Assembly: GCA_963626295.1 (NCBI GenBank)
Contig: CAVFWS010000001.1
Coordinates: 6,301 to 53,850, forward strand
Origin: Clostridium sp. CAG:138
Lineage (GTDB): Bacteria > Verrucomicrobiota > Kiritimatiellia > RFP12 > UBA1067
Direction: 5' to 3'
Length of the DNA: 47,550 nucleotides
Shown here: in pieces, positions 3,731 through 41,389 of the stretch
How the letters are laid out: each line of letters begins with the position of its first letter
Numbering within the stretch: position 1 is the first letter of the stretch
Made by a program: the position numbers and the translations under genes
The notes under the pieces: generated by a model
Told to the model about the DNA's origin: nothing
What the model saw: only the letters and a program-made list of their open reading frames with translations
The model's database searches: none

Positions 3731-6076
3731 ATGGCTTCAGACAACCTTAAGTACGGCGGGAAGCCCATATATTCGGGGTCGGCGAAGAAGTCGCCGATAT
3801 ACTACGGCGTTTCCGGGAATGCCCCGTACTATTACGGACACGGCAGCTACGGGCGGCCTCCGTACGGGGGCGACGGGTCGTCGCAGGATCCGGATTCGCT
3901 CGTCGGGTCGATAACGCCGGCGCGGGTGCTGCGCGTCGTGTCGCAGAGGTGGATCACCGTCCTCGTGTTCCTGCTCGTCGGCCTTGTGGCCTCGTTTGCC
4001 GTCTACCGCATCTCCCCGACGATATACGAGGCGAAGTCCGAGTTCACGATGCAGATGCGCACCCCCAAGACAACCTCCGGCGCCCTCGGGCAGATCACGG
4101 AGGTCGATTACGGCAATACCTACGAGGAGGTGTTCAATACGCGGCTTTCCGATTGGCGTTCCGAGAAGCTGATAACGAAGATCATGCAGCAGTACAGGGC
4201 GAACCACCCTGCCTCCACCGTTTCCGACGAGGATCTTCTGGGTGCGCTTGCCGAGTCGGAGCTGGAGCTTGTGCGCCGTTCAAGGCTCATCACGATTGCG
4301 GTCCGGTCGGGCTCCGCCCAGCTTGCCGCCGACCTGGCGAACTCCTACGCGGAGGCGATCGAGAGCTTCACGGACGAGGAGAACAGGCTCCGCTGCGACA
4401 AGGCCGTAGCCCAGATCAGCGACCAGGTGAAGAAGCAGCGCAGCGTGGACGAGAAGGTGTCGGCGGCGCTGCTCGCTTTCCGCAAGACGCACAAGGTGGA
4501 CAACCTGAAGAGCGAGCGCGAGATCGTCCAGCAGGCCCTGCAGAAGGTCGCCGCCGATGTGCTCAACCTCGAGTCCGAGGTGACGAGCGCGACCGAGTGG
4601 GAGAAGGTGCTTGAGGCGGCGCAGGAGACCCCGGAGGACTTCGGCGCACTGCCGTCTGCCGTCCCGCGCTCGTCGGAGATCGGCCAGGCGTACACGGAGC
4701 TCCAGAAGTGCAAGCTCGAGCTCAACTCCCTGCTCACGTCCTTCACGACCAGCCATCCCGACGTGCGCATCAAGCAGAAGAGCCTCGACATACTCAAGCA
4801 GCAGTTCACCGAGTCCGTCTCGCGCGCCCTCGCCACCGCGCACGGCAACCTCGCGTCGTTCCGCAACCAGCTCGCGGTGCACAGGAAAAGCCGCGACAGG
4901 CTCACGGCCACGCTCGCGGAGATAGACCAGAAGATAATCTCCGCGGAGTCCGGCCTCGCCCAGATAGAGAGCGAGAAGGAGATATCGTCCCTGCTCCTGA
5001 AGCAGCTCCAGCAGGACGAGAACACCGCGCGGATCGCCGCCGAGGCGAACAACGAGATAGTCCGCGTTGGCCGCGTCGCGAGCGTCCCGTCCAAGCCGGT
5101 GCTGCCCAACCCCATCATGATCTTCGCCGTAGGGATCGCAGGCTCGCTCATGCTCGGGTTCCTGTTCGTGCTGGTGCTTGACCACCTTGAGGACACCGTC
5201 ATCTCTATATCCGACATTGAGACGCGCCTCTCGCTCAAGGTCCTGGCCGTGATGCCGCACGTGAGGCGCAAGAAGCGCGAGGAGGTCGCGAAGTTCATCG
5301 CCGAGAACAAGTATTCCCAGTTCGCCGAGGCGGTGGCGGGGCTCCGCAACCTGCTGGACTCGCCGAGGTACGCCGAGATGAACAAGGTGTTCCTCATAAT
5401 GTCCACGCAGCCCGCCGAGGGGAAGTCGATCACGAGCTGCTCCCTCGCGATATCCAACGCGCAGGCGCACCGCAGGACTCTGCTGGTGGACTTCGACATG
5501 CGCCGCCCGCGCCTCGGCAAGGTGTTCGGCCTGACGGGCCTCGACGTCGCCCATTCCTTCTCGCACGCCCTGCAGCGGGGCGGCAAGTGCGATTTCGCCG
5601 GACTGGTGAACGCGTCCGGGATCGATAGCCTCGACGTGATCGCCTCCGTCAAGCCCGAGGGGGTAGACCCGGCCTCGATAATGGGCTCGAGCATCGTCCC
5701 GGAGTTCTTCGCGTGGGCGCGCGAGAACTACGAGCGCGTTATAATCGACTCGCCGCCGTTCGGCATCGTGGGCGACGTGGTCACGCTCGCCTCCATGGTA
5801 GACGGAGTGATGGTCGTGTGCTGCCCGGACCGCACGCACTTCCGCCCGATCCAGTCTGCGGTGCGCAACCTTACCGAGGCCGGGGCGACCATCCTTGGCG
5901 TGATCGTGAACGACGTGGAGACGAACCAGATGGACGGCGGGGCGTTCGCGATGCACGGCCGCCACGGCTACGGATACGGCTACGGCGGGTACAGCTACAG
6001 CTACGGCTACAGGCCGAAGGAGAGGGTTGAGGCCGCGTCGGCCGAGGCGTCGAAGACCGTCACGGACGAGGAGTAG
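3731..6076 (+). CDS. polysaccharide co-polymerase / tyrosine autokinase (Wzc/GumC-like)
   Basis: Two TM segments (VLVFLLVGLVASFAVY; IMIFAVGIAGSLMLGFLFVLVL) flank a long coiled-coil periplasmic region. Walker A is TQPAEGKS, Walker A' is LLVDFDMRRP, Walker B is VIIDSPP. C-terminal Tyr cluster HGYGYGYGGYSYSYGY lies at nt 5969-6010. Confidence 0.88.
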   Translation: MASDNLKYGGKPIYSGSAKKSPIYYGVSGNAPYYYGHGSYGRPPYGGDGSSQDPDSLVGSITPARVLRVVSQRWITVLVFLLVGLVASFAVYRISPTIYEAKSEFTMQMRTPKTTSGALGQITEVDYGNTYEEVFNTRLSDWRSEKLITKIMQQYRANHPASTVSDEDLLGALAESELELVRRSRLITIAVRSGSAQLAADLANSYAEAIESFTDEENRLRCDKAVAQISDQVKKQRSVDEKVSAALLAFRKTHKVDNLKSEREIVQQALQKVAADVLNLESEVTSATEWEKVLEAAQETPEDFGALPSAVPRSSEIGQAYTELQKCKLELNSLLTSFTTSHPDVRIKQKSLDILKQQFTESVSRALATAHGNLASFRNQLAVHRKSRDRLTATLAEIDQKIISAESGLAQIESEKEISSLLLKQLQQDENTARIAAEANNEIVRVGRVASVPSKPVLPNPIMIFAVGIAGSLMLGFLFVLVLDHLEDTVISISDIETRLSLKVLAVMPHVRRKKREEVAKFIAENKYSQFAEAVAGLRNLLDSPRYAEMNKVFLIMSTQPAEGKSITSCSLAISNAQAHRRTLLVDFDMRRPRLGKVFGLTGLDVAHSFSHALQRGGKCDFAGLVNASGIDSLDVIASVKPEGVDPASIMGSSIVPEFFAWARENYERVIIDSPPFGIVGDVVTLASMVDGVMVVCCPDRTHFRPIQSAVRNLTEAGATILGVIVNDVETNQMDGGAFAMHGRHGYGYGYGGYSYSYGYRPKERVEAASAEASKTVTDEE

Positions 6077-6079
6077 GCG

Positions 6080-7240
6080 ATGCGGCGGCAATTGAAGCGT
6101 TGCGTCGTCACAGGCGGCGCAGGATTCATCGGGTCCGCGCTTGTGAGGCGTCTCGTGCGCGACACGGACGCGACGGTGCTCGTGATCGACAAGCTCACGT
6201 ACGCGGGATGCCTCGAGTCCCTGCGGGACGCCGGCGTTCAGCCGTGGTCTGCGCCCGATGCGATGTGCGACGAGATCGGGTCCGCTGGCGTCCCGGGCCT
6301 GCCGCGATGCCAGTTCCTTCAGGCTGACATATGCGACATGGACGCGATGGCCGCGGCGTTCGACGTGTTCCAGCCGGACACCGTGTTCCACCTCGCCGCG
6401 GAATCGCACGTGGACAGGTCGATCGACGGCCCGGGCGAGTTCGTCCGCACGAACGTGACTGGCACCGCGACGCTCCTCCAGGTCGCGCTTGCGTACTGGA
6501 AGGGACTCCCTGACGCTCTGGCGCCCGGCGGCGGACCTTCTGCCTCCAGGGGAGACTTCCGTTTCCAGTACATATCCACCGACGAGGTGTACGGTTCGCT
6601 CGGAGAGTCAGGCTTCTTCACCGAATCGACCCCGTACGCCCCGCACTCCCCGTATTCGGCGTCCAAGGCGGCATCCGACCATCTCGTCCGCGCCTGGCAC
6701 GACACATACGGATTGCCAACGCTCATCACCAACTGCTCGAACAACTACGGGCCATACCATTTCCCCGAGAAGCTGATTCCCCTGACGATACTGAATTGCC
6801 TCGAAGGCAGGCCCATTCCGGTGTACGGGAGCGGCGCGAACGTGCGCGACTGGCTCTATGTGGATGACCACGTGTCGGCGCTTCTGCTCGTGAACGAAAA
6901 GGGCGTTCCGGGCGAGACGTACAATGTTGGGGGGCACAACGAGCGCACCAACATGGAGGTCGTAAAGACGGTGTGCTCCACATTGGATCAGCTTCGCCCA
7001 CGCGGTTCCGGGAAATACGAAGATCTCATAACGCACGTCGCTGACCGCCCAGGCCACGACCTTAGATACGCGATAGACCCGACGAAGCTGATGCGGAACC
7101 TCGGATGGTCGCCGAAGGAGACCTTCGACACCGGGATCCGCAAGACCGTGCAGTGGTATCTCGACAACGAGTGGTGGTGGCGTCCAATCCGCGAGAGACG
7201 GTATGGCGGCGAGCGGCTTGGCGTAGGCGCACGGACATAA
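6080..7240 (+). CDS. rfbB: dTDP-glucose 4,6-dehydratase
   Basis: [10 protein letters not shown] Rossmann motif and [10 protein letters not shown] (YxxxK). Overall pattern typical of RfbB, including [17 protein letters not shown]. Confidence 0.9.
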
Positions 7241-7262
7241 AACCCAAGACTGGTGCGGCGCC

Positions 7263-10200
7263 GTGTCCGAAAGGTGCGACATATTCGCGAAGGCGTTTTG
7301 CGCGGGCGTTCCGGACGGGGCGCCCGCCGTCGCCTATCAGTCGTTTTCGGGAAGTGCGGCGGCGTTTGCGGCGGCGACGTTGGCCGTTCGAGGCAAGGGC
7401 GTTGTGCTCGCGGTCACGGCGGGGCTTCCCGAGGCCGATGCGCTGTTCGCGGACCTTGAGGCGATAGCGGACGAGGTTGGTGTGCGCGTCCTTGAGTTTC
7501 CGCCCGACATCGAGGATGACAGGTGCTCCACGGCTGCGAGGCTTAAGGTGTCGGCCGTTCTCGGCGCCTACATGATGCGCCCATATCCGCTCGTGATAGT
7601 TTCGCCGGTGGTGGCATTGGCTGGGGCGGTCGCGTCCTCGGATGCAGCGCACAGGGCGGAACTGGATCTTTCACCCGGCCTGAAACCCGATGCCAATACG
7701 GATGCCCCCTCGTTCGCGTCAATCCAGGAGAAGCTGCTCGCGATCGGCTATGAGCGAACTGTGGAAGTCTCGTCGCCGGGCGAGTTCTCCGTGCGAGGAG
7801 GCGTGCTTGACGTATGGAGTCCGGATTCAGAAACCCCAGTGCGGGCGGAATTCTTCGGCGACGAGATAGAGAGCATCCGCAGGTTCGACCCGGGCACGCA
7901 GATGTCTGTCGGCAAGGTCGATTCCGCGAAAATCGCCCCGGTGTCCGTCCCCGGCGATGGAGCGGACGGCGCACCACTGCTTTCGCTCCTCCCCGCGAAC
8001 GGGATCGTGCTTGCGATAGACCACAATTCCTACCCGACCGAGGCGGAATGCATCCGGTCGCGTGGGTTCGGGATGGTGTTTGTCGGCGATCCGGCTCCGC
8101 GGGACGTCCCGACGTGCCCGTTCGTGTCGGCCCCGCTCCCGGGGTTCGCGGAGCAGCGCGTCACGGACGCAATGCTCGTCGAGCGCGTGCGCGAGACGCT
8201 CAGGGGATATCTGGCGGCAGAGAGGCGCAAGGGCGCGCTTGTCGTCGAGGACGACAGGCTTGGCGGCGGATTCTCGTGTGACGGGCTTGTCGTTGTGGCC
8301 AAGAGCGACAGGGTGCCGGGCGTTCGCGGACGGCTTTCGGGGGCAGGGGCGAGGGCGAATGCCGCATCGCATTCGGGCGGACGCCTCTCTGCGTCGATGG
8401 ACATCGAGCCAGGCGAGCTCGTGGTGCATCTCGATTACGGGATAGGACGATTCCTCGGATCGACGGAGGTTGAGGTAGGCGGCGTACGCAGCGAGGTGTT
8501 CACGATAGAGTACGCCGACGGGGCGAAACTCCATGTCCCGGTCGCCCATGCGCACCTCCTTTCCCGCTATGTCGGCGTAAAGGGCGAGAAGGTGAGGCTA
8601 CACCGCCTTGACGGACGCCGGTGGGTCCGCGAGAAGTCCGATGCTCAAAAGGCGGTCGCAGACCTTGCCGCCGCGCTATTGGAGACGCAGGCCCGCCGCG
8701 CCGTCGTGCCGGGGTTCGCGTACGACGTCGAGGCGGACGGCATAGGCGCGTTCGAGGCGGCGTTCCCGTACGAGGAAACCCCCGACCAGCGGAAGGCCAT
8801 CGAGGACGTCAAGCGCGACCTTGCCTCGCGCAAGCCGATGGACCGCCTCATCTGCGGCGATGCCGGATACGGCAAGACCGAGGTCGCGATGAGGGCCGCG
8901 TTCATTGCCGCCATGAACGGGAAGCAGACGGCGCTGCTTGCTCCGACGACGGTCCTTGCCCAGCAGCACTACGAGACGTTCCTCGCGAGGTTCGAGGGCA
9001 CGCCAGTCCGCATTGAGGCGATGAGCCGCTTCCAGTCCGAGGACGAGAAAAGGGGGGCTCGCGCCCGTCTCGCGAGCGGCGCCGCCGACATGGTGATAGG
9101 CACGCACGCGATGCTGTCCTCGAAGATGCGGTTCCATGACCTTGGGCTGATAATCGTCGATGAGGAACAGCGGTTCGGCGTACGTCACAAGGAATACCTA
9201 AAGCGGTTGCGGTCAACTGCGGACGTGCTTACCATGAGCGCGACCCCCATACCGCGCACGCTATACCTGTCGATGACGGGCGCGAGGGACATGTCCGTGC
9301 TGAAGACGCCGCCACGCGAGCGCGTCGCCACGGAGACGAGGATAGTGCGCGACTCCGACGCGACGGTGAAGTCCGCCATCGCCAGGGAACTTGCGCGTGG
9401 CGGGCAGGTGTACTATCTGCACAACAGGGTGATCACCATATCGCGGGCGGAGAGGCGCGTCAGGTCGCTGTTCCCGGACGCAAGGGTGGATGTCGCCCAC
9501 GGGCAGATGCCCACCTCGGTGCTGGCGGACAAGATGCGCGGCTTTTCGGAGGGGCGTACCGATGTGCTCATATGCACCACCATCGTGGAGTCGGGGCTGG
9601 ATATCACCCGCGCGAACACGATAATCGTGGATCGCGCCGACCGCTTCGGGATCGCAGAACTCTACCAGCTTCGCGGGCGCGTCGGACGAGGGGCGCGTCA
9701 GGGCTACGCATACTTTCTGTTGCCGTCCGAAGGGATGATAGATTCCGAGGCCAGGGAACGTCTTGACGCCCTGCGCAAGCATTCGGGGAACGGCAGCGGG
9801 TACAACCTGTCCCTCCGGGACCTGGAGCTGCGCGGGGCCGGCAACCTGCTTGGCAGCGAGCAGTCCGGACACATAGCGGCGATAGGCTTTTCCCTGTACT
9901 GCCAGCTCCTCCGCCGCACGATAGCGAAGATGCGCGGCGAGGCGGTGCCAGATGTCATTGATGTTTCCGTCAACCTCGACTTCATCGACTTCTCGCCCGG
10001 CACCGCCGATCCCGGTTCCGGCGCGTCGCTCCCATACGATTATGTGGAGGATGAGTCGCAGAGGATGGACTTCCATCGCCGCCTTGCGGAAGTCGCTTCC
10101 GTAAAGGATGTTGCGCGGCTGAGGCGGGAGCTCGCCGACAGGTATGGAAGGCTGCCCCCCGCCGCCGTGCGGCTTGTCCGCCTCGCCGAGTTCAGGATGA

Positions 10201-12930: not shown

Positions 12931-15438
12931 CTATTGCCTGAACGTGAGATGGCCATCCTTTGACAGGGTGCCCCTGATCTTGCCCGGCTTCAGCTTGCCG
13001 CCGAGAAGCAGTTCGGCAAGGGGGTCCTCCACGAACCGCTGGACTGCGCGACGGAGAGGCCTTGCCCCCATCGCCTCGTCGGATCCGTTCTTGACGAGGA
13101 ATCCGATGGCATTCTTGTCGAGGTCAAGGGTCATGTCCTTCTCTGAAAGGCGACTGCGGAGAAGGGCCAGCTCGAGGCTCAGGATGGTCTCCACGTTCTT
13201 CGAATCGAGCTTGCGGAACACCACTGTCTCGTCGAAGCGGTTCAGCAGTTCGGGACGGAAGGTGCGCTTCGCCTCCGCGAGCAGCTTCTCCTTCAGCGCA
13301 TCGTAGGACGTAGACACCTCGTCCTGCATGAAGCCGAACGACTTGCCGTCGCGGGCGAAGTCGAATCCAAGGTTCGCCGTCGCTATGATGATCGTGTTCC
13401 GGAAGTCGATGGTCCTGCCCTGCCCGTCGGTGAGCTTGCCCTCGTCGAGGATCTGCAGAAGCATGTTCATCACGTCGGGGGAGGCTTTCTCGAATTCGTC
13501 GAACAGCACCACGGAATACGGGCGGCGGCGCACCCGCTCCGTAAGCTGGCCGCCCTCGTCGTACCCCACATATCCGGGAGGCGCACCGACGAGCCTTGAG
13601 GACGTGAACTTGTCGGAGAATTCGGTCATGTCGAGCGAGATGAGGGCCTTCGGATCCCCATACACCTTTTCCGCGAGCATCTTTGCGAGAAGCGTCTTGC
13701 CTACGCCCGTAGGGCCAAGGAACAGGAAGCTCCCTATCGGGCGCTTGGGGTCGCCGAGGTTCGCCCGGCTGCGCCTGAGCGCGCGGGCAATGGACGATAT
13801 GGCCTCCGTCTGCCCAACCACCACCGTGTTGAGGTCGCGCTCCATGCCGAGAAGCTTTTCGGCGGCGGCGAAGCTCATGCGTTCCACCGGCACGCCGCTG
13901 ATGGACGCGACCGTGGCGGCGATGTCGTCCGCCGTCACCGCGATGACCTTCTCGGCGTGTTCGGCCTTCCATGCGTCAAGCCGCTTCTTCAGTTCGGCCT
14001 TGGCGGCCTTTTCCGCGTCACGCCATTTTGCCGCCTCTTCGTATACGCCACGGTTTGCCGCATCCTGCTTTTTCAGGTTCAGTTCCGCGATCTTCTCCTC
14101 GTCTGCCTTCATGTCCGGCGGGCGCACCGCATTCTTCATCCTTGTGCGTGAGCCTGTCTCGTCTATGGCGTCAATCGCCTTGTCCGGCAACAGGCGCGCC
14201 GGCAGATAGCGGGCCGTGAGCTTCACTGCGGCGGAGAGCGCCTCTGGCTCATACCTTACGTTGTGGTGCTTCTCGTACCTTGGGGCGATGCCCTTGAGTA
14301 TCTCGATGGCGTCGTCCTGCGAAGGCTCGTTCACGATTACGCTCTGGAACCTGCGCTCCAGCGCGGCATCCTTCTCGATCGACTTGTGGTATTCCTTCAG
14401 TGTCGTCGCGCCGACGACCTGGATCTCGCCGCGGGCGAGGGAGGGCTTGAGTATGTTGGCCGCGTCCATCGCGCCCTCGGGTCCGCCGGCGCCTACGAGC
14501 GTATGTATCTCGTCAAGGAACAGGATGCAGTTCCTCGAGTTCTTCGCCTCCTCTATCAGCTGCTTGAGGCGTTCCTCGAACTGGCCCCTGTACATGGTCC
14601 CGGCGACGACGCGAGTCATGTCCAGGGATATGACGCGCTTCCCGCGCATCCGTTCCGGCGCGTTCCCGGCGGCTATGGCCTCCGCCAGACCCTCCACCAC
14701 GGCCGTCTTGCCGACCCCGGCCTCGCCGATCAGCACCGCGTTGTTCTTCGTCCTCCGCGACAGCACCTGCAGTATGCGCTCTATCTCGGCCTTGCGCCCT
14801 ATGACGGGATCGAGCTCTCCGTTCATCGCCGCCTTCGTCAAATCGCGGCCATACGTGTTCAGCGCCGGAGTCTTGACCTTCTTGCCGCCCTCTTCCTCAT
14901 CCTCGCCCTCCTGCGGGGCGGCGAGGATGGAGTCGTCCCCGCCGCCGTCCTTGGCGTTGCCGTCGCCATCTCCCGCATTGCCGCCATTGCCGGGGGACTG
15001 CGCGGACTCGGACTGGCCGCTGAGGGATTTCGCGAAAGTGTCGGCGGTCACATTGTGCCCGAACAGGATCTGCGCCCCGACCGACTCGCCCTCGCGCAGC
15101 ATCGCGAGCATGATGTGCTCCGTGCCGACTTTCTCCGATTTGGCCCGGACGGCCTCTATCTTCGCGAATTCGAGCACCTTCCTCGTGCGGGCCGTCAACG
15201 GAAGCGCACCTTTCACGGCATAGGCTTCGCCTCGGCCTATTATGCGGTCCAGCTCCATGCCAAGGTCGTCGTTGTCGAGGCCCATCCGCTTAAGGCACTT
15301 GCAGGCCGTGCAGTTCTCCATCTTCAGGATGCAGGCCAATACGTGTTCCGTTCCGATGTACGTGTGGTTGTAGTGCCGGGCGACCGATTCCGCTCCATCG
15401 AGCGCCTGCTGGGCATATGGCGTATATAGTTCGTTCAT
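12931..15438 (-). CDS. clpC: ATP-dependent Clp protease ATP-binding subunit ClpC
   Basis: Clp_N repeats, Walker A motifs GEAGVGKTA and GPTGVGKT, and a UVR-like coiled segment. The ATG at 15438 overlaps the mcsB stop by 1 nt (TGATG); the track's start at 15441 is a TTG. Confidence 0.92.
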   Translation of the reverse strand: MNELYTPYAQQALDGAESVARHYNHTYIGTEHVLACILKMENCTACKCLKRMGLDNDDLGMELDRIIGRGEAYAVKGALPLTARTRKVLEFAKIEAVRAKSEKVGTEHIMLAMLREGESVGAQILFGHNVTADTFAKSLSGQSESAQSPGNGGNAGDGDGNAKDGGGDDSILAAPQEGEDEEEGGKKVKTPALNTYGRDLTKAAMNGELDPVIGRKAEIERILQVLSRRTKNNAVLIGEAGVGKTAVVEGLAEAIAAGNAPERMRGKRVISLDMTRVVAGTMYRGQFEERLKQLIEEAKNSRNCILFLDEIHTLVGAGGPEGAMDAANILKPSLARGEIQVVGATTLKEYHKSIEKDAALERRFQSVIVNEPSQDDAIEILKGIAPRYEKHHNVRYEPEALSAAVKLTARYLPARLLPDKAIDAIDETGSRTRMKNAVRPPDMKADEEKIAELNLKKQDAANRGVYEEAAKWRDAEKAAKAELKKRLDAWKAEHAEKVIAVTADDIAATVASISGVPVERMSFAAAEKLLGMERDLNTVVVGQTEAISSIARALRRSRANLGDPKRPIGSFLFLGPTGVGKTLLAKMLAEKVYGDPKALISLDMTEFSDKFTSSRLVGAPPGYVGYDEGGQLTERVRRRPYSVVLFDEFEKASPDVMNMLLQILDEGKLTDGQGRTIDFRNTIIIATANLGFDFARDGKSFGFMQDEVSTSYDALKEKLLAEAKRTFRPELLNRFDETVVFRKLDSKNVETILSLELALLRSRLSEKDMTLDLDKNAIGFLVKNGSDEAMGARPLRRAVQRFVEDPLAELLLGGKLKPGKIRGTLSKDGHLTFRQ

Positions 15439-16268
15439 CAAAGGTATTCCTTCGCAAAATCGTTGAGGCGCACGTTCCTGAAGCGCCTGTTGGCCTTGTC
15501 CGCAAGGACGGCGTCCTTGCGGTCCAGCTCCCTCTGCTCTTCATACGTGTTGGGGATGGAAGGGGGCGGCTGGTCTATCCGCGACAGCATGATCTCCGCG
15601 GCCTCCTTCCGCGTGAAATTGTCGAGGAAATTGAGGTCTGCCGCGAGCTTGAGGGGCGAGATGACGTCCACAAGCTCCAGGTTCGACAGCAGGCGGCAGC
15701 TTCTCAGGATCGCAAGCGACCGTTCGATCGCGTCCTCGAACACGCGGGGGAACTCATCTACCAGCCTGATCCGGGCATTGGATTCCTGCTTCACGATGTC
15801 GGAGAAGATCTGCCTGACCCTCGACGCAAGCTCATCCTCGTCCAGGCCGAGGGCCTGTGCGTTGCCTACGCGGAAGATGTGCGCCACGTCCTTGAGTCCG
15901 TCGCCATCGCATCCGTATGCGCTCATCCGCATCCCGCTGAGGGCGTTGAGCGCCGCCGCGAGATCCCCGATCAGGTGCAGCCCCTCAAGGTGGAACAGGG
16001 CCGATATCTCCAGGCCGGTCCCGCACATGAACGGGGATGCCGTGACGTAGCCGAATCGCGGATTCCACGCAAACGGGTGCTCGGCCGCGGCCTTTGCCTC
16101 GTCCCGCAGCAGCTTTGCCACGGCCTGGCGTATGCGCGTCGGCGAGGAAATCTCCGTGCTGAGGCAGACCATGTTCTCGTCCGTGAATGGCAGATCTGTG
16201 CGCTGCCTGTACAGGCGCACCGTGCCGCCGGAGAATATGGCGGAGCCGTCTATCTCGATGCCTGTCAT
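15438..16268 (-). CDS. mcsB: protein arginine kinase McsB-like (short, divergent)
   Basis: ORF 15438..16571 trimmed to the ATG at 16268, which overlaps the mcsA stop (ATGA). Guanido-kinase-like blocks VRLYRQRTDLPF, FGYVTASPFMCGTGLEISALFHL and IFRVGNAQALGLDEDEL. Sits between mcsA and clpC. Confidence 0.7.
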   Translation of the reverse strand: MTGIEIDGSAIFSGGTVRLYRQRTDLPFTDENMVCLSTEISSPTRIRQAVAKLLRDEAKAAAEHPFAWNPRFGYVTASPFMCGTGLEISALFHLEGLHLIGDLAAALNALSGMRMSAYGCDGDGLKDVAHIFRVGNAQALGLDEDELASRVRQIFSDIVKQESNARIRLVDEFPRVFEDAIERSLAILRSCRLLSNLELVDVISPLKLAADLNFLDNFTRKEAAEIMLSRIDQPPPSIPNTYEEQRELDRKDAVLADKANRRFRNVRLNDFAKEYL

Positions 16269-23278: not shown

Positions 23279-23316
23279 AAAAAAAGCGGTTCCGTGGGGT
23301 CGCAATGCGCGGGAAA

Positions 23317-23325
23317 TGGTATAAT
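23317..23325 (+). promoter_or_regulatory. extended -10 promoter element (TGGTATAAT) for the methyltransferase gene
   Basis: TGGTATAAT lies 14 nt upstream of the ATG at 23340. No Shine-Dalgarno lies between them. It is divergent from the ftsH element 45 bp away. Confidence 0.5.
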
Positions 23326-23339
23326 CCCCCGCACTTGAC

Positions 23340-24974
23340 ATGGCAGAGAGACTACAACAGTGCACGATGCGGCGCAAATCGTCGCGGAAGGCGTCTGCGC
23401 GCACGGCGCACACGGTGGACGCGGCGGCGGGCGGCAATGCAGACGGCGAGGCGGCGGCGAAGAAGGTGGTCCTCGTCGGGACGTACAGGGCGGGGCAGCT
23501 GGAACGCTGGCCCGGCCTCTACAACTATCCCCTCAACGCGGGCGACACGGTTGACGCCGAGGCGGCGAAGCGGGTCAACGAGATCTGGCTCTTCAACGGC
23601 GCGAAGGGCGGACGGTACTTCGCGGCGGAGTTCGTCGGCACGTTTGCGCGCGGCGAACTCGTCCGCGACTGGGGATATCAGGCGGGTGGCGCGGCGCACG
23701 GCGAAAAGTACCTGCTCTACCGGATCCGGCCGGCCTACGCGCCCGCGAACACGCCGGACGCGCTTGCGGCGGATGTGGAGCGCGTGATCGTGCGCGCGGA
23801 GGACTTCGCGAAGCGCTCGCCGAAGATCGCGCGAGCGATCAAGGCGTATCTCGAATCGCCTGACCGCAGCGGCCCCGGCCTCGCGGACCGACTTCCGCCG
23901 GTTCTCCTGCAGGTGCCGCGCGCGGCCCTCTGCGTCTGCGAGCCGGGCGTACAGATGGAGTTCTGGAACGCTTTGCCGATGGGACCGGGGCCTTCTGCTC
24001 CGTTTGCATCGACGAGGAGCGATGTCAACATCGAGTTTGGCGATAGCCTTAGACTTTGCGAAAGGTGGGAACGTCCGACTGTGATTGTCTCCGACGGCCC
24101 CTATGGGCTGGCGAGCTATCCTGGCGATCCGGCGACGCCAGAGGGATTGGCGGACTTCTACCGTCCGTTCTTGGAAATATGGCACGACCGTGCCTTGCCG
24201 TCGGCAACCCTTTGGTTCTGGAACACCGAGCAGGGATGGGCCAATTGCCATCGGGCAATCGAAGAGGCCGGATGGAAGTTCAGGAATTGCCACATCTGGA
24301 ACAAGGGAATGTCCCATGTGGCGGGGAACTGCAACACGCGGACGATCCGCAAGTACCCTGTAGTCACGGAAGTGTGCGCCCAGTACGTGCGCAAGAACAT
24401 GTTGCCGTCGAACGGCGCGGAACTGCCGCTCAAGGACTGGATGCGCGAGGAATGGCGGCGTACGGGGCTTCCGTTTCGCCTTGCGAATGTCGCATGTGGG
24501 GTCAAGGATGCCGCAACGAGGAAATACTTTGCCTCCGACCATCTTTGGTATTTCCCGCCGTCCGAGGCATTTGTCCGCATCGCGGCCTATGCGAATGAAT
24601 TCGGAGACAAGTTAGGACGTCCGTATTTCACGAAGTCGGACGGGAAGCCTTTTTCGGCGGGCGAGTGGGATTTGATGCGTGCGAAGTTCCATTGCGAGGT
24701 GGGCGTCTCGAACGTCTGGGATCTCCCTGCCGTCCGGGGGGGCGAACGCATCAAGGAAGGGGGATCTTGTCTGCACATGAACCAAAAACCATTGCAGTTG
24801 CTTATGCGGATCATTCGATCTTCGTCCGATCCCGGAGATGTCGTCTGGGAGCCGTTCGGCGGATTGTGTTCGACGGCGATTGCGGCTGTCCGTACAGGGC
24901 GAAGGGCGTTTGCCGCGGAAATGAATCCTCGGTTCTTCGACGTCGCAAAGGAGAGGCTGTCCCATGAAACATGA
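23340..24974 (+). CDS. beta-class (N6-adenine or N4-cytosine) DNA methyltransferase with a ~205-235 aa uncharacterised N-terminal module
   Basis: The motif order IV-then-I is typical of PF01555-type enzymes. Motif IV is [11 protein letters not shown] (nt 24090-24107). [14 protein letters not shown] is the conserved QKP block. Motif I is [15 protein letters not shown]. The N-terminal ~205 codons have no motif I recognise. Alternative internal starts are at 23955 and 23979. Confidence 0.8.
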
Positions 24975-25893
24975 ATCGAAAAGGCGGACGACCGTGAACA
25001 TCAAGCGCATTGAACCGTCCGACACGTGGCCGCACAAAAGGCTGTGGCGTGGCGTCATCGATGCTCTCAAGGCGCTCCCCGCGCACTTCCACAGCGATAC
25101 GTTCATCGAGGGCGTGAATGCGACGGACGTTTTCACGTTGAACTCGGCGCTGGGCGCGACGATCGAGAACCAGGTTGTCGAGACGCTGAATACCATCCGG
25201 AGCGTTTGGGATCCTGACAATGCCTATGGCACGTATCTGTTTGTTAGACAGCCCCAGTCATTCCCGGATGTCATCCTGAAGAACCTTTCGGACGAGACGG
25301 CGAAGCCAATCATGGGGATTGAACTGAAAGGATGGTACCTCTTGGCGAAGGAGGCCGAGCCGAGCCTGCGATTCCAGCAGACGAGTGCGGCGTGTGCCGA
25401 GGCGGACGTGATCATGGTCGTGCCGTGGGTCTTGAACAGTGTGATCTCAGGGCGGCCTCGAATCTATTCGCCTTACATCGAGTCGGCACGGTATGCTGCG
25501 GACTATCGGAACTGGCATTGGAGGCAGATGCGGGGGGAGGGCATTGCATCGGAGATCAGCATTCCGTCCCAGGCTGAGCCGTATCCACGCAAGGCCGATG
25601 CTACAAACGACAAGCCGCAGTCGGACAATGGCAAGAATTTCGGGCGAATTGCCCGTACGGGGCTGATGGATGACTATCTGGCCAAGATGCAGCTTCAGCC
25701 AGTTTGTGGCATACGAGCCGCCTACTGGCTTGAGTTCTTCAAGATATTCCATCAAGACGCGACGGACGAGCAAATCGAGAAAGCCCTTGATCGTCTTCGT
25801 GTCAAGGTTGACGGCATCCCCGAATCGGCGCAGAAGCGGAGTTTCTTGGATGTTCTGGCCGTTCTTGAGGCACATTGTCGCGAATTGACGTAA
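24964..25893 (+). CDS. putative PD-(D/E)XK restriction endonuclease
   Basis: Overlaps the methyltransferase stop by 11 nt. Has helix Glu (GATIENQ), then FPDVIL (D102) and GIELKGW (E120, K122) with canonical PD...ExK spacing. GC is about 50-53% in hand-counted lines. Confidence 0.6.
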   Translation: MKHESKRRTTVNIKRIEPSDTWPHKRLWRGVIDALKALPAHFHSDTFIEGVNATDVFTLNSALGATIENQVVETLNTIRSVWDPDNAYGTYLFVRQPQSFPDVILKNLSDETAKPIMGIELKGWYLLAKEAEPSLRFQQTSAACAEADVIMVVPWVLNSVISGRPRIYSPYIESARYAADYRNWHWRQMRGEGIASEISIPSQAEPYPRKADATNDKPQSDNGKNFGRIARTGLMDDYLAKMQLQPVCGIRAAYWLEFFKIFHQDATDEQIEKALDRLRVKVDGIPESAQKRSFLDVLAVLEAHCRELT

Positions 25894-25913
25894 GGTGTGA
25901 CGAGGTCGTGCAG

Positions 25914-26102
25914 ATGAGCAAAAGGTATCGTGTCCTGCTGCGTGAGACGTTCACGTGCTACGTTGACGTTTGCGCGGACAGCCGCGACGAGGCGCGAGAA
26001 CTCGTCGAGGAACAGGTCGAGTGCGCCGAGATTGTCGCTCCTCGCGATTACGATGGCTTTGACCGGAAGGTTTCGGTCATGCGCAGGCTGAAAGACGAAT
26101 GA
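25914..26102 (+). CDS. small acidic protein, DpnD/PcfM-like pattern
   Basis: 62 aa, starting 20 nt after the nuclease stop with GAGG upstream. The pattern YRVLLRETFTCYVDVCADSRDEARELVEEQVECAEIV...DYDGFD resembles, from memory, small DpnD/PcfM-family proteins. An antisense ORF also exists, so the strand call rests on this pattern. Confidence 0.4.
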   Translation: MSKRYRVLLRETFTCYVDVCADSRDEARELVEEQVECAEIVAPRDYDGFDRKVSVMRRLKDE

Positions 26103-26294
26103 ATCTCGCGCTGTTCTTTTTCTGCTTTCAGCCCAGGTTGTTCTCGTCATGCCTCCCGTGCCATGCACAACGAGGGCGTCGTCGCCACGGCACATCGGCG
26201 GCAGAGGGCTGCATCCGGATCGTCAATGTCTAGATGGTGCAATGAACCGGAAATCGCAAATGAAAAAATCGGATTTATCGCTGCCCTTTCGATT

Positions 26295-26323
26295 TTGCAT
26301 ATTTCCGCGCATTGTGGTACAAT
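26295..26323 (+). promoter_or_regulatory. sigma70-type promoter for ilvC (TTGCAT-17-TGgTACAAT)
   Basis: TTGCAT at 26295-26300, a 17-nt spacer containing TG at 26315-26316, TACAAT at 26318-26323. AGGAG at 26351-26355 and ATG at 26366. Confidence 0.6.
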
Positions 26324-26365
26324 GCGCAGAGTTTTCTTTGATCACAAAGAAGGAGTTAAAGTCAA

Positions 26366-31242: not shown

Positions 31243-31251
31243 TGGTATAAT
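31243..31251 (+). promoter_or_regulatory. extended -10 element (TGGTATAAT)
   Basis: Lies 24 nt upstream of the ATG at 31276, with AGGAG at 31267-31271. Confidence 0.5.
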
Positions 31252-34399: not shown

Positions 34400-34428
34400 T
34401 TGATTAGCCGGGCTTGGTTTGGTATAAT
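34400..34428 (+). promoter_or_regulatory. sigma70-type promoter for carB (TTGATT-17-TGgTATAAT)
   Basis: TTGATT at 34400-34405, a 17-nt spacer ending in TGG, TATAAT at 34423-34428. AAGGAG at 34493-34498. Confidence 0.65.
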
Positions 34429-41380: not shown

Positions 41381-41389
41381 TGGTATAAT
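41381..41389 (+). promoter_or_regulatory. extended -10 element (TGGTATAAT) upstream of folD
   Basis: Implies a leader of about 90 nt before the ATG at 41488 (GGGAG at 41481-41485). Confidence 0.5.

Follow-up and report, generated by a model that had tools for sequence, protein, structure and literature searches.

The small gene cassette between ftsH and ilvC in this window (the whole stretch of DNA that was analysed, 47,550 nucleotides, nt, from a gut bacterium of the Kiritimatiellae) raises the question of whether it is an ordinary restriction-modification (R-M) system or one to which further parts have been added. According to the list of open reading frames (ORFs) of the window, three co-directional + strand ORFs fill positions 23340-26102: a methyltransferase (MTase) gene of 544 amino acids (aa) at 23340..24974, the gene of a candidate PD-(D/E)XK restriction endonuclease (REase) of 309 aa at 24964..25893 and a small acidic DpnD/PcfM-like ORF of 62 aa at 25914..26102. 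They are flanked by ftsH (minus strand; Peptidase_M41 and AAA) and ilvC (KARI_N/KARI_C). The initial annotation, made from the letters of the sequence, had seen a single foreign-looking cassette of low GC content, built around a Type II R-M-like pair. The present analysis keeps the pair and divides the cassette. The locus is probably a Type II R-M operon in two layers, namely an imported core of methylase (M) and nuclease (R) and a native adaptor at the N-terminus of the methylase, the latter likely a nucleic-acid-binding regulator.

The tight packing of the three co-directional genes was reproduced exactly, with an 11-nt overlap between M and R (24964-24974) and a 20-nt gap between the nuclease gene and the small ORF (25894-25913). 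A Shine-Dalgarno-like AAGGAGAGG lies 7-8 nt 5' of the nuclease ATG (24964), within the end of the MTase gene, and this element and the overlap together form what would be a classic layout for translational coupling. For the small ORF the mechanical list starts at a TTG (25875); the ATG at 25914 was taken as the likely start because a Shine-Dalgarno-like GAGG sits 8 nt 5' of it. In agreement with the initial reading, the ORF list holds no controller (C) protein, integrase or transposase between ftsH and ilvC. M, R and the DpnD-like ORF, the sole ORFs between these two genes, match no family of the helix-turn-helix (HTH) type in Pfam or NCBIfam. Rfam gave 0 matches over the whole window and a scan for tRNAs found none.

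Base composition separates the two layers. With 57.5% GC, positions 24027-26102 are the lowest-GC stretch of their size in the 47.5-kb window, where the other windows of 2076 nt have a mean of 64.3% (sd 2.0, minimum 60.3). The four hand counts given initially (31/60, 32/60, 30/60 and 44/60) were all exact on recount. However, the first ~690 nt of the MTase gene (23340-24026) have 69% GC and a GC content at third codon positions (GC3) of 0.84, which lies within the range of the host genes of this region (0.81-0.95; ftsH 0.90, ilvC 0.95), whereas GC3 is 0.69 in the MTase core, 0.71 in the nuclease and 0.70 in the small ORF. A foreign-looking composition thus holds for the catalytic part, the nuclease and the small ORF and fails for the beginning of the operon. 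In 30-codon windows GC3 is 0.87 at residue ~195 and has dropped to 0.57 by residue ~225, with the switch at ~205-215, inside the gene. This break coincides with a disordered linker (aa 209-229, 23964..24026, + strand), which joins an N-terminal domain, referred to below as the N-module, to the catalytic domain. The linker is predicted with low confidence by AlphaFold2 (AF2; predicted local distance difference test, pLDDT, below 50) and is variable. Because GC3 is host-like before the break and lower after it, the N-terminal part appears to be native and the rest imported.

The same division is seen in comparison with the locus L002, which carries two R-M systems in direct orientation (6473-8930 and 13497-16139). 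One is orthologous to the cassette of the window; the other consists of a C5 methylase, split into 434 and 134 aa, and a BsoBI-type nuclease. Within the one MTase gene, the synonymous divergence (dS) from the orthologue amounts to 0.16 for the N-module but reaches 0.61 for the core, and the linker retains 25% aa identity. The ratio of nonsynonymous to synonymous divergence (dN/dS) is 0.55 in the N-module, and 0.056 in the core and 0.069 in the nuclease, both under strong purifying selection. Moreover, the N-module DNA of the window (23459-23963) is 89.9% identical to the module of the C5 methylase of L002, and the two N-modules of L002, which sit on unrelated methylases 7 kb apart, share 94% nucleotide identity (dS 0.13). 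By these comparisons the MTase gene appears to be chimaeric, with a resident 'promoter + N-domain' unit joined to an imported M-R core, and copies of the N-module seem to have been homogenised between paralogues. The near-identical modules of L002 could recombine with each other, with deletion or cassette swapping as the result.

The catalytic half of the MTase (aa 230-544, 24027..24974, + strand) can be assigned to the beta class of amino-methyltransferases. N6_N4_Mtase (PF01555) matches aa 248-538 with an E-value of 8e-20 and is spanned over its whole profile. Motif IV, S-D-G-P-Y-G (aa 251-256, 24090-24107, + strand), precedes motif I, F-G-G-L-C-S (aa 506-511, 24855-24872, + strand), and this circularly permuted order (252-255 before 506-511) is that of the beta class. 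The initial annotation had called motif IV non-canonical. The DGPY variant is indeed there, but it is not peculiar to this copy: an alignment of 34 homologues, one of them from Alicyclobacillus, shows D252, G253, P254, Y255, F506, G507 and G508 to be invariant or almost so. Since DGPY is invariant in the aligned family, it is best regarded as a family trait and not as decay. The best sequence matches in the PDB are the N6-adenine enzymes CcrM, MboIIA, RsrI and DpnA. As these closest solved relatives are N6-adenine enzymes, and as an Asp at the first position of motif IV also fits, the MTase is probably of the N6-adenine type. Most homologues of this MTase (~345 aa) lack the N-module.

The second gene of the core has the hallmarks of a PD-(D/E)XK nuclease. 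Its predicted catalytic residues lie in P101-D102 (25264-25269, + strand) and E120-L-K122 (25321-25329, + strand), and D102, E120 and K122 are invariant in this P-D...E-L-K arrangement in the 47 homologues aligned, out of 1847 found. PADLOC assigns the protein to REase_II (E 2e-7). A sequence search retrieved no close relative from the PDB; when the AF2 model (pLDDT 81) was compared by Foldseek, 31 EcoRV chains came out on top (E 1.3e-2 to 0.14, probability up to 0.87), followed by BglI, with template modelling (TM) scores of just 0.19-0.34.

The pair is found again in very different surroundings. The M-then-R order and the overlap are kept at three different chromosomal sites in other Kiritimatiellae metagenome-assembled genomes (MAGs), namely beside AAA_14/TSP3 genes, after truB-ribF-GHMP kinase and inside a moxR-DUF58 operon. 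The pair also occurs in an Alicyclobacillus defence island with integrase, transposase and TIR genes, on a 12-kb Cupriavidus plasmid and as gp30-gp31 of mycobacteriophage Xavia (cluster P3). Across these contexts M and R are 44-60% identical to the proteins of the window; six independent contexts show the same order and overlap, and in the loci examined the nuclease always adjoins a homologue of the MTase. The two proteins of Xavia are homologous to the window pair at 45% and 44% identity. The same pair resides on plasmids of Cupriavidus, Rhodococcus, Gordonia, Micrococcus and Cutibacterium. The phage and plasmid methylases, of ~370 aa, have neither the N-module nor a DpnD-like ORF next to the pair, which sits beside integrases, transposases or plasmid maintenance genes. 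Relatives of R are present on 12 IMG/VR contigs, and at least 15 M matches and R matches agree in the size of the longest contig. When expressed alone, Xavia gp30 and gp31 are each cytotoxic (bioRxiv 10.64898/2026.01.06.698002), which is compatible with an R-M pair without proving one. The likeness to a Type II pair, already pointed out in the initial annotation, thus extends to an overlapping unit kept in unrelated genomes, a plasmid and a phage.

Such conservation bears on the alternative that the nuclease is no cognate REase and that the two genes are another toxin-antidote or a DNA-repair couple, or a solitary methylase with an unrelated neighbour. The nuclease lacks a Pfam family and goes under 'hypothetical protein' in those phage and plasmid records that were examined, as might be expected under this alternative. 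However, the order and the overlap with the same MTase family are strictly kept across phyla and mobile elements, the catalytic triad is invariant, and the fold and PADLOC matches are Type II REases. Decay also involves both genes: a deletion in L100 (5949-6400) runs from the middle of the N-module to the 3' tail of the nuclease gene and so removes M and R jointly, and in P0008 the methylase ORF runs on into the C-terminal tail helices of the nuclease, which leaves M fused to the R tail. These decay products seem to behave as expected of an addictive pair, and a non-cognate nuclease is very unlikely. L100 had itself been considered as a standalone 'resident' N-module and was rejected as such, since it derives from a deletion by which the 5' portion of the module was joined to the 3' tail of R. 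Judged from sequence and context, the M-R core is with high confidence predicted to be a Type II R-M module of a widespread, uncharacterised family.

Several features are shared with classical Type IIP systems (nucleases EcoRV, PvuII and BglI; methylases M.RsrI, M.MboIIA and CcrM): separate M and R genes, the permuted IV...I order, the PD...(D/E)xK triad and mobile, island-like contexts. The closest solved structures are those of CcrM, MboIIA, RsrI and DpnA for the window M and of EcoRV and BglI for R. Unlike the classical systems, the window has an R protein without sequence similarity to solved or Pfam-curated REases, a motif IV that reads DGPY and not (D/N/S)PPY, and an M-first, translationally coupled operon with no C protein and an N-terminal MTase extension of ~190 aa. 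As a side observation, a family of unannotated ORFs of 195-227 aa (~32% identity, no Pfam family) recurs beside R-M loci (L004 8942-9529, L015 9633-10316 and L018 4619-5059). In L004-L006 a member follows directly 3' of the nuclease gene; in L015 one is placed between HIT and an XhoI R-M system.

The new element of the locus is the N-terminal part of the MTase; the core, as a mobile Type II R-M pair, is ordinary in kind, though of an uncharacterised family. A basic, disordered and poorly conserved tail (aa 1-39, 23340..23456, + strand; pLDDT 56-65) carries a net charge of +5 here and of +2.8 on average in 21 homologues. It is followed by the N-module proper (aa 40-208, 23457..23963, + strand; GC3 0.88), for which AF2 predicts a beta-rich fold, neither HTH nor ribbon-helix-helix (RHH). 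The mean isoelectric point of the module is 8.6. The initial annotation could not assign this region, and the databases cannot either: no match was found in Pfam, NCBIfam, PHROGs or PADLOC, the 21 members gave no Pfam match at an E-value of 10, and a profile search returned no sequence match in the PDB. The family is nevertheless large. An exhaustive profile search yielded 369 clusters at 50% identity, 208 of them at E<=1e-10, and the module is almost always found at the extreme N-terminus.

An over-extended ORF call in a GC-rich genome, or a recombination scar that donated promoter and start, would offer a simpler account of the N-terminal 229 residues, which would then be functionless baggage on an ordinary R-M system. 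In line with such an account, the similarity between paralogues takes in the -10 element of the promoter, dN/dS is 0.33-0.55 in the module and 0.06 in the core, the shorter MTase homologues do without it, and many truncated or rearranged copies exist. However, AF2 models the module confidently (pLDDT 88-97 over the 160 residues 41-200) from just 21 sequences, and the family reaches down to ~25-30% identity with G47, W57, Y61, P64, L84, Y124 and L185 invariant. In addition, the frame is kept through variable linkers into at least five partner families, dN/dS is still below 1, and the protein start MAE(K/R)L is conserved. The start of the window MTase, MAERLQQ, fits the MAE(K/R)L or MAEKLL... 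of many N-module genes, which supports ATG 23340 as the true start. Taken as a whole, the absence of any function is quite unlikely.

The partners of the N-module are diverse. Among 50 long representatives, 36 carry a C5 methylase, six an N4/N6 methylase, two a D12 and one an Eco57I-type methylase; the corresponding numbers for 68 distinct complete ORFs from metagenomes are 52 C5 and 13 N4/N6, and two further ORFs carry DUF3791. The gene 3' of an N-module gene is co-directional and tightly linked, mostly at -4 to +17 nt, and encodes NgoMIV (4), MutH/Sau3AI (3), HaeIII (2), EcoRII (2), EcoO109I, BglII, BsaWI, NotI or HNH_2 (4). Eight Pfam REase families are represented among these downstream genes, and the BsoBI type of L002 comes in addition. 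A DUF3990 gene adjoins the fusions of the N-module to DUF3791, for example in L106. DUF3990 is, as we assume, an ADP-ribosyltransferase-like toxin domain, and DUF3791 next to it would be a presumptive antidote that bears the N-module. The sole named member of the family is from the Kiritimatiellae, and relatives on viral contigs were looked for and none found. By this distribution the N-module appears to be specific to Kiritimatiellae-type genomes of gut and rumen and native to the lineage. The cassette had initially been taken as one foreign unit, and this view does not survive, since the module at its N-terminus has a native composition and is a member of a family that is specific to the lineage and found on many methylases.

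Not all apparent fusions of the N-module are genuine. Those to ORF6N and RhuM turned out, in the cases inspected, to be truncations or insertion scars and were not counted as partners: P0391 has a broken C5 motif I at its end, and in P0472 the N-terminus of RhuM is joined to half an N-module. The protein search also listed a 'fusion' to NgoMIV. In L095 (6001-8558), and likewise in L096-L099, the N-module ORF ends in a truncated C5 motif I; after it come an ORF6N-domain gene and a gene for an HNH_2 nuclease, next to radC. This arrangement recurs in 24 contigs and may be a mobile insertion into the methylase gene or a distinct system. L107 has two N-module copies within 4 kb (136-1272 and 3774-4589). 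One belongs to a C5 methylase, the other to an ORF of 271 aa without a Pfam domain, and an ATPase_2 gene lies between them.

The module also appears to travel with its own promoter. A host-type extended -10 element, TGGTATAAT, recognised by its consensus, is located 14 nt 5' of the MTase ATG (23317..23325, + strand). Four exact + strand copies are present in the window (23317-23325, 31243-31251, 34420-34428 and 41381-41389) against 0.06 expected, and the element stands directly 5' of N-module genes in L002 (both copies), L100, L120 and L121. The similarity between paralogues starts ~20 nt 5' of the ATG; it includes a perfect TGGTATAAT and ends there. In its general form, TGnTAnAAT, the element is found in 33 of 70 distinct upstream regions of N-module genes (window and metagenome loci). 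The organism seems to rely on TGnTAnAAT promoters without an obvious -35 element, and TGGTATAAT is predicted to be a promoter of this host type. Subgroups of N-module genes carry hairpins in their 5' untranslated regions that are conserved within a subgroup and differ between subgroups. One type consists of CACTTCTTTTACGGAAGAAGTG and then AAGGATTTCAATGG, the other of the strong palindrome GGGCGGTCGCCCCGCGACCGCC; hairpin-bearing subgroups comprise L128, L150, L158 and L159 (~60-110 nt 5' of the module) as well as L132, L140, L165, L169, L170, L180 and L183. These leader hairpins could either serve regulation or act as terminators for the genes upstream.

The two layers would work together as follows. 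In the core, M would protect a recognition site and the translationally coupled, EcoRV-like nuclease would cut unmethylated copies of it. The adaptor, a 'promoter + basic tail + N-module' unit (nt 23317-23963), is fused in frame to the imported MTase core, and its putative nucleic-acid-binding domain would set or autoregulate how strongly the antidote-first operon is expressed. The basic tail and the mean isoelectric point of the module suggest that it binds nucleic acids. As the N-module heads the antidote gene whatever its chemistry or target, its role should be a generic one, directed at the operon or the cell and not at the recognition site.

The adaptor would replace the C protein absent here, in parallel to the N-terminal region of M.SsoII. 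That region is of the HTH type. In M.SsoII, M.Ecl18kI and M.EcoRII, too, an R-M methylase has an N-terminal extension and the system lacks a C protein, and the SsoII region measures ~71 aa (PMC3978073; PMC3695355). For the M.SsoII type and the window MTase alike, the extension is dispensable for catalysis in relatives and the proposed role is transcriptional control of the own operon. Unlike the SsoII region, however, the N-module has ~170 aa, is beta-rich, is unrelated in sequence, occurs on several methylase classes and shows no shared operator across 70 genes.

Several observations weigh against the two-layer regulator reading. As to the core, enzyme activity, methylation motif and cleavage site are known for no member of the M-R family; the nuclease belongs to no Pfam or NCBIfam family, and its match to EcoRV is weak (TM 0.24-0.32). 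As to the adaptor, the beta-rich fold is not one of HTH or RHH type, and ~170 aa is large for an operator binder. The search upstream of the 70 N-module genes revealed no common operator or palindrome, only the host promoter type and the subgroup hairpins. The constraint on the module, at the dN/dS values given above, is just moderate. Finally, the weak Foldseek matches of the N-module lean towards PUA-like readers of modified bases.

These last matches underlie the main rival, in which the N-module is a divergent PUA-like domain (EVE/YTH/ASCH/DCD-type) that reads modified bases or nucleotides. Such a reader would tether the antidote enzyme to DNA with a lineage-wide 'self' mark, or activate it there, so that hemimethylated host DNA is maintained and naive phage DNA is less often methylated by accident. 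Among the top Foldseek matches in the PDB, those that have a biological theme are all PUA-like: YTHDF2 and YTHDC1 (E 0.16-0.7), the 5-hydroxymethylcytosine-specific PD-T4-3, VcaM4I, the ASCH domain of TRIP4 and Lon-N. A search of BFVD adds a DUF3850 protein at E 0.07, which would presumably be a member of an ASCH-like family. The order of secondary structure elements in the N-module is compatible with a PUA-like domain, and six conserved aromatics (Y49, W57, Y61, F98, Y113 and Y124) could form a base-binding cage. However, no Foldseek match reaches E 0.01, and the TM scores are 0.2-0.3 (0.22-0.32 for YTH at E 0.16). HMMER found no match of EVE, YTH, ASCH or DCD to the N-module at E-values up to 10. 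A relationship to EVE was also sought by hhalign against 19 canonical and nine divergent EVE sequences from the supplement of Bell et al. and was rejected, the probability of 0.1-0.2% being that of the negative control (positive control, 98%). A single reader pocket would furthermore need to serve m5C, m4C or m6A enzymes at nine or more sites, plus DUF3791, which does not modify DNA.

There is a precedent for this kind of architecture. Fusions of DCD (EVE-like) domains to MTases, followed by PD-(D/E)XK nucleases, have been described (Bell, Wolf and Koonin, 2020, BMC Biol 18:159; PMC7641849), and the window resembles them in its small beta-rich N-module, its Rossmann MTase and the PD-(D/E)XK gene next to it. 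Unlike these fusions, it shows no EVE relationship at the profile level and no Pfam match to DCD, EVE, YTH or ASCH. The DCD fusions are reported to be rare and mostly archaeal or hyperthermophilic (PMC7641849), whereas the N-module family is abundant in gut and rumen genomes of the Kiritimatiellae type, where most copies sit on C5 methylases that are paired with classical Type II REases. On balance, a PUA-like reader is fairly improbable.

In a further alternative the N-module is a docking domain for a host factor, for example the replisome or a nucleoid protein, which places the acquired methylase at new DNA and co-evolves with its partner. Its restriction to one lineage, its host-like codon usage, its presence whatever the enzyme's catalytic class or target site and the homogenised copies within a genome all suit such a role. 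However, no partner has been identified, the fusions to the DUF3791 antidote would be left unexplained, and nothing like known clamp-binding or SSB-binding motifs was noticed, though no systematic search was made. Docking is unlikely for these reasons.

An extension of the two-layer reading, which may be entertained with much reserve, is that the 'promoter + basic tail + N-module' unit is a portable, lineage-specific domestication adaptor. By recombination it would capture the antidote genes of incoming toxin-antidote-type modules, Type II R-M systems of any specificity as well as DUF3791/DUF3990 pairs. These would receive from it native signals for transcription and translation, together with a new nucleic-acid-binding sensor or regulator domain that places all of them under one common control, and gene conversion between copies would keep the copies matched.

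The third ORF appears to stand outside both layers. The initial annotation had described it as a small ORF of a type seen in some restriction cassettes, and it does pass the cut-off of DpnD-PcfM (PF14207) with 29.0 bits against 25.0 (E 1.1e-6, aa 5-41 on the 46-position profile); it is, however, absent from all other M-R loci examined. It is confined to the same-species contigs L001 and L011-L013 and missing from L002-L010 and L103-L105. In L012 (GCA_963612195.1), of the same species, a 53-bp deletion at about 9720-9775 takes away its 3' end. Its position just 3' of the nuclease gene is that of dpnD after dpnC in the DpnI cassette of Streptococcus pneumoniae (a further relative is PcfM of pCF10); in the present family it is not conserved with the M-R pair. 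The ORF and the ~185 nt behind it can be regarded as a local passenger, because the similarity between the window and L002 ends at the stop codon of the nuclease. Within the contigs compared, the DpnD/PcfM-like ORF thus looks like a species-specific passenger and not like a conserved third component. Two side observations concern this region. The stop codon of the small ORF lies within a hairpin with 14-nt arms (26086-26099 and 26120-26133), part of which is lost through the deletion in L012. Elsewhere in L012 (1452-4069), ftsK is called as two genes (566 and 313 aa) instead of one of 877 aa.

Only the right edge of the foreign DNA could be placed. A non-coding tail of the imported segment (26103..26285, no strand assigned; ~50% GC, 0.498) has no counterpart 5' of ilvC in L015 or other relatives. 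Homology to ilvC upstream regions begins at ~26290, which puts the edge at ~26285. Beyond it lie the native promoter and leader of ilvC (26291..26365, + strand), conserved 5' of ilvC in L015-L024, with TGTGGTACAAT as extended -10 element (26311-26321). TGTGGTACAAT is conserved before ilvC in eight species, and the scanner scored the promoter/leader region as both promoter-like and hairpin-like. A terminator after the small ORF was considered and rejected; the sole T-tailed hairpin (26307-26327) belongs to the conserved ilvC promoter. Flanking repeats were likewise rejected as an insertion scar. The best bracketing pair is a 24-nt inverted repeat, 75% complementary (23303-23326 and 26291-26314), and it is probably due to chance, because it is no better than nine other pairs of the region and overlaps the promoters of M and ilvC.

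Synteny between ftsH and ilvC, which the initial annotation had proposed as a guide to the insertion, is too fluid here to reveal an empty site. All three same-species MAG contigs that cover the site (with identical ilvC) carry the cassette between ftsH and ilvC. In the 80 best-matching other-species loci, fetched by ilvC (identity 67-98%), neither ftsH nor the cassette was found within 8 kb of ilvC. In L015, where ilvC is 98% identical, the order is miaA-dus-ilvC-HIT, and an unrelated XhoI R-M system follows further on. L015, L021, L025 and L026 (ilvC 88-98% identical) are labelled Limosilactobacillus gorillae, Lachnospiraceae, Barnesiella intestinihominis and Faecalibacterium; all derive from 'H076xx-L1_cleanbin' assemblies, and the bins are probably mislabelled or contaminated.

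The core and the adaptor differ in what they mean for the biology of R-M systems. The M-R family is a candidate source of new specificity, and defence annotation may miss it. The N-module is a single uncurated domain, placed in front of the methylases of nine or more different classical restriction systems within one lineage. Its host-like codon usage, own promoter and homogenised copies suggest a common host-encoded function on unrelated, selfish R-M modules, which bears on how R-M systems get established, are controlled and are kept from killing their host. If the idea of a domestication adaptor were true, the adaptor would represent a layer of R-M regulation that acts genome-wide in one bacterial class and has gone unrecognised, as well as a new protein domain family.

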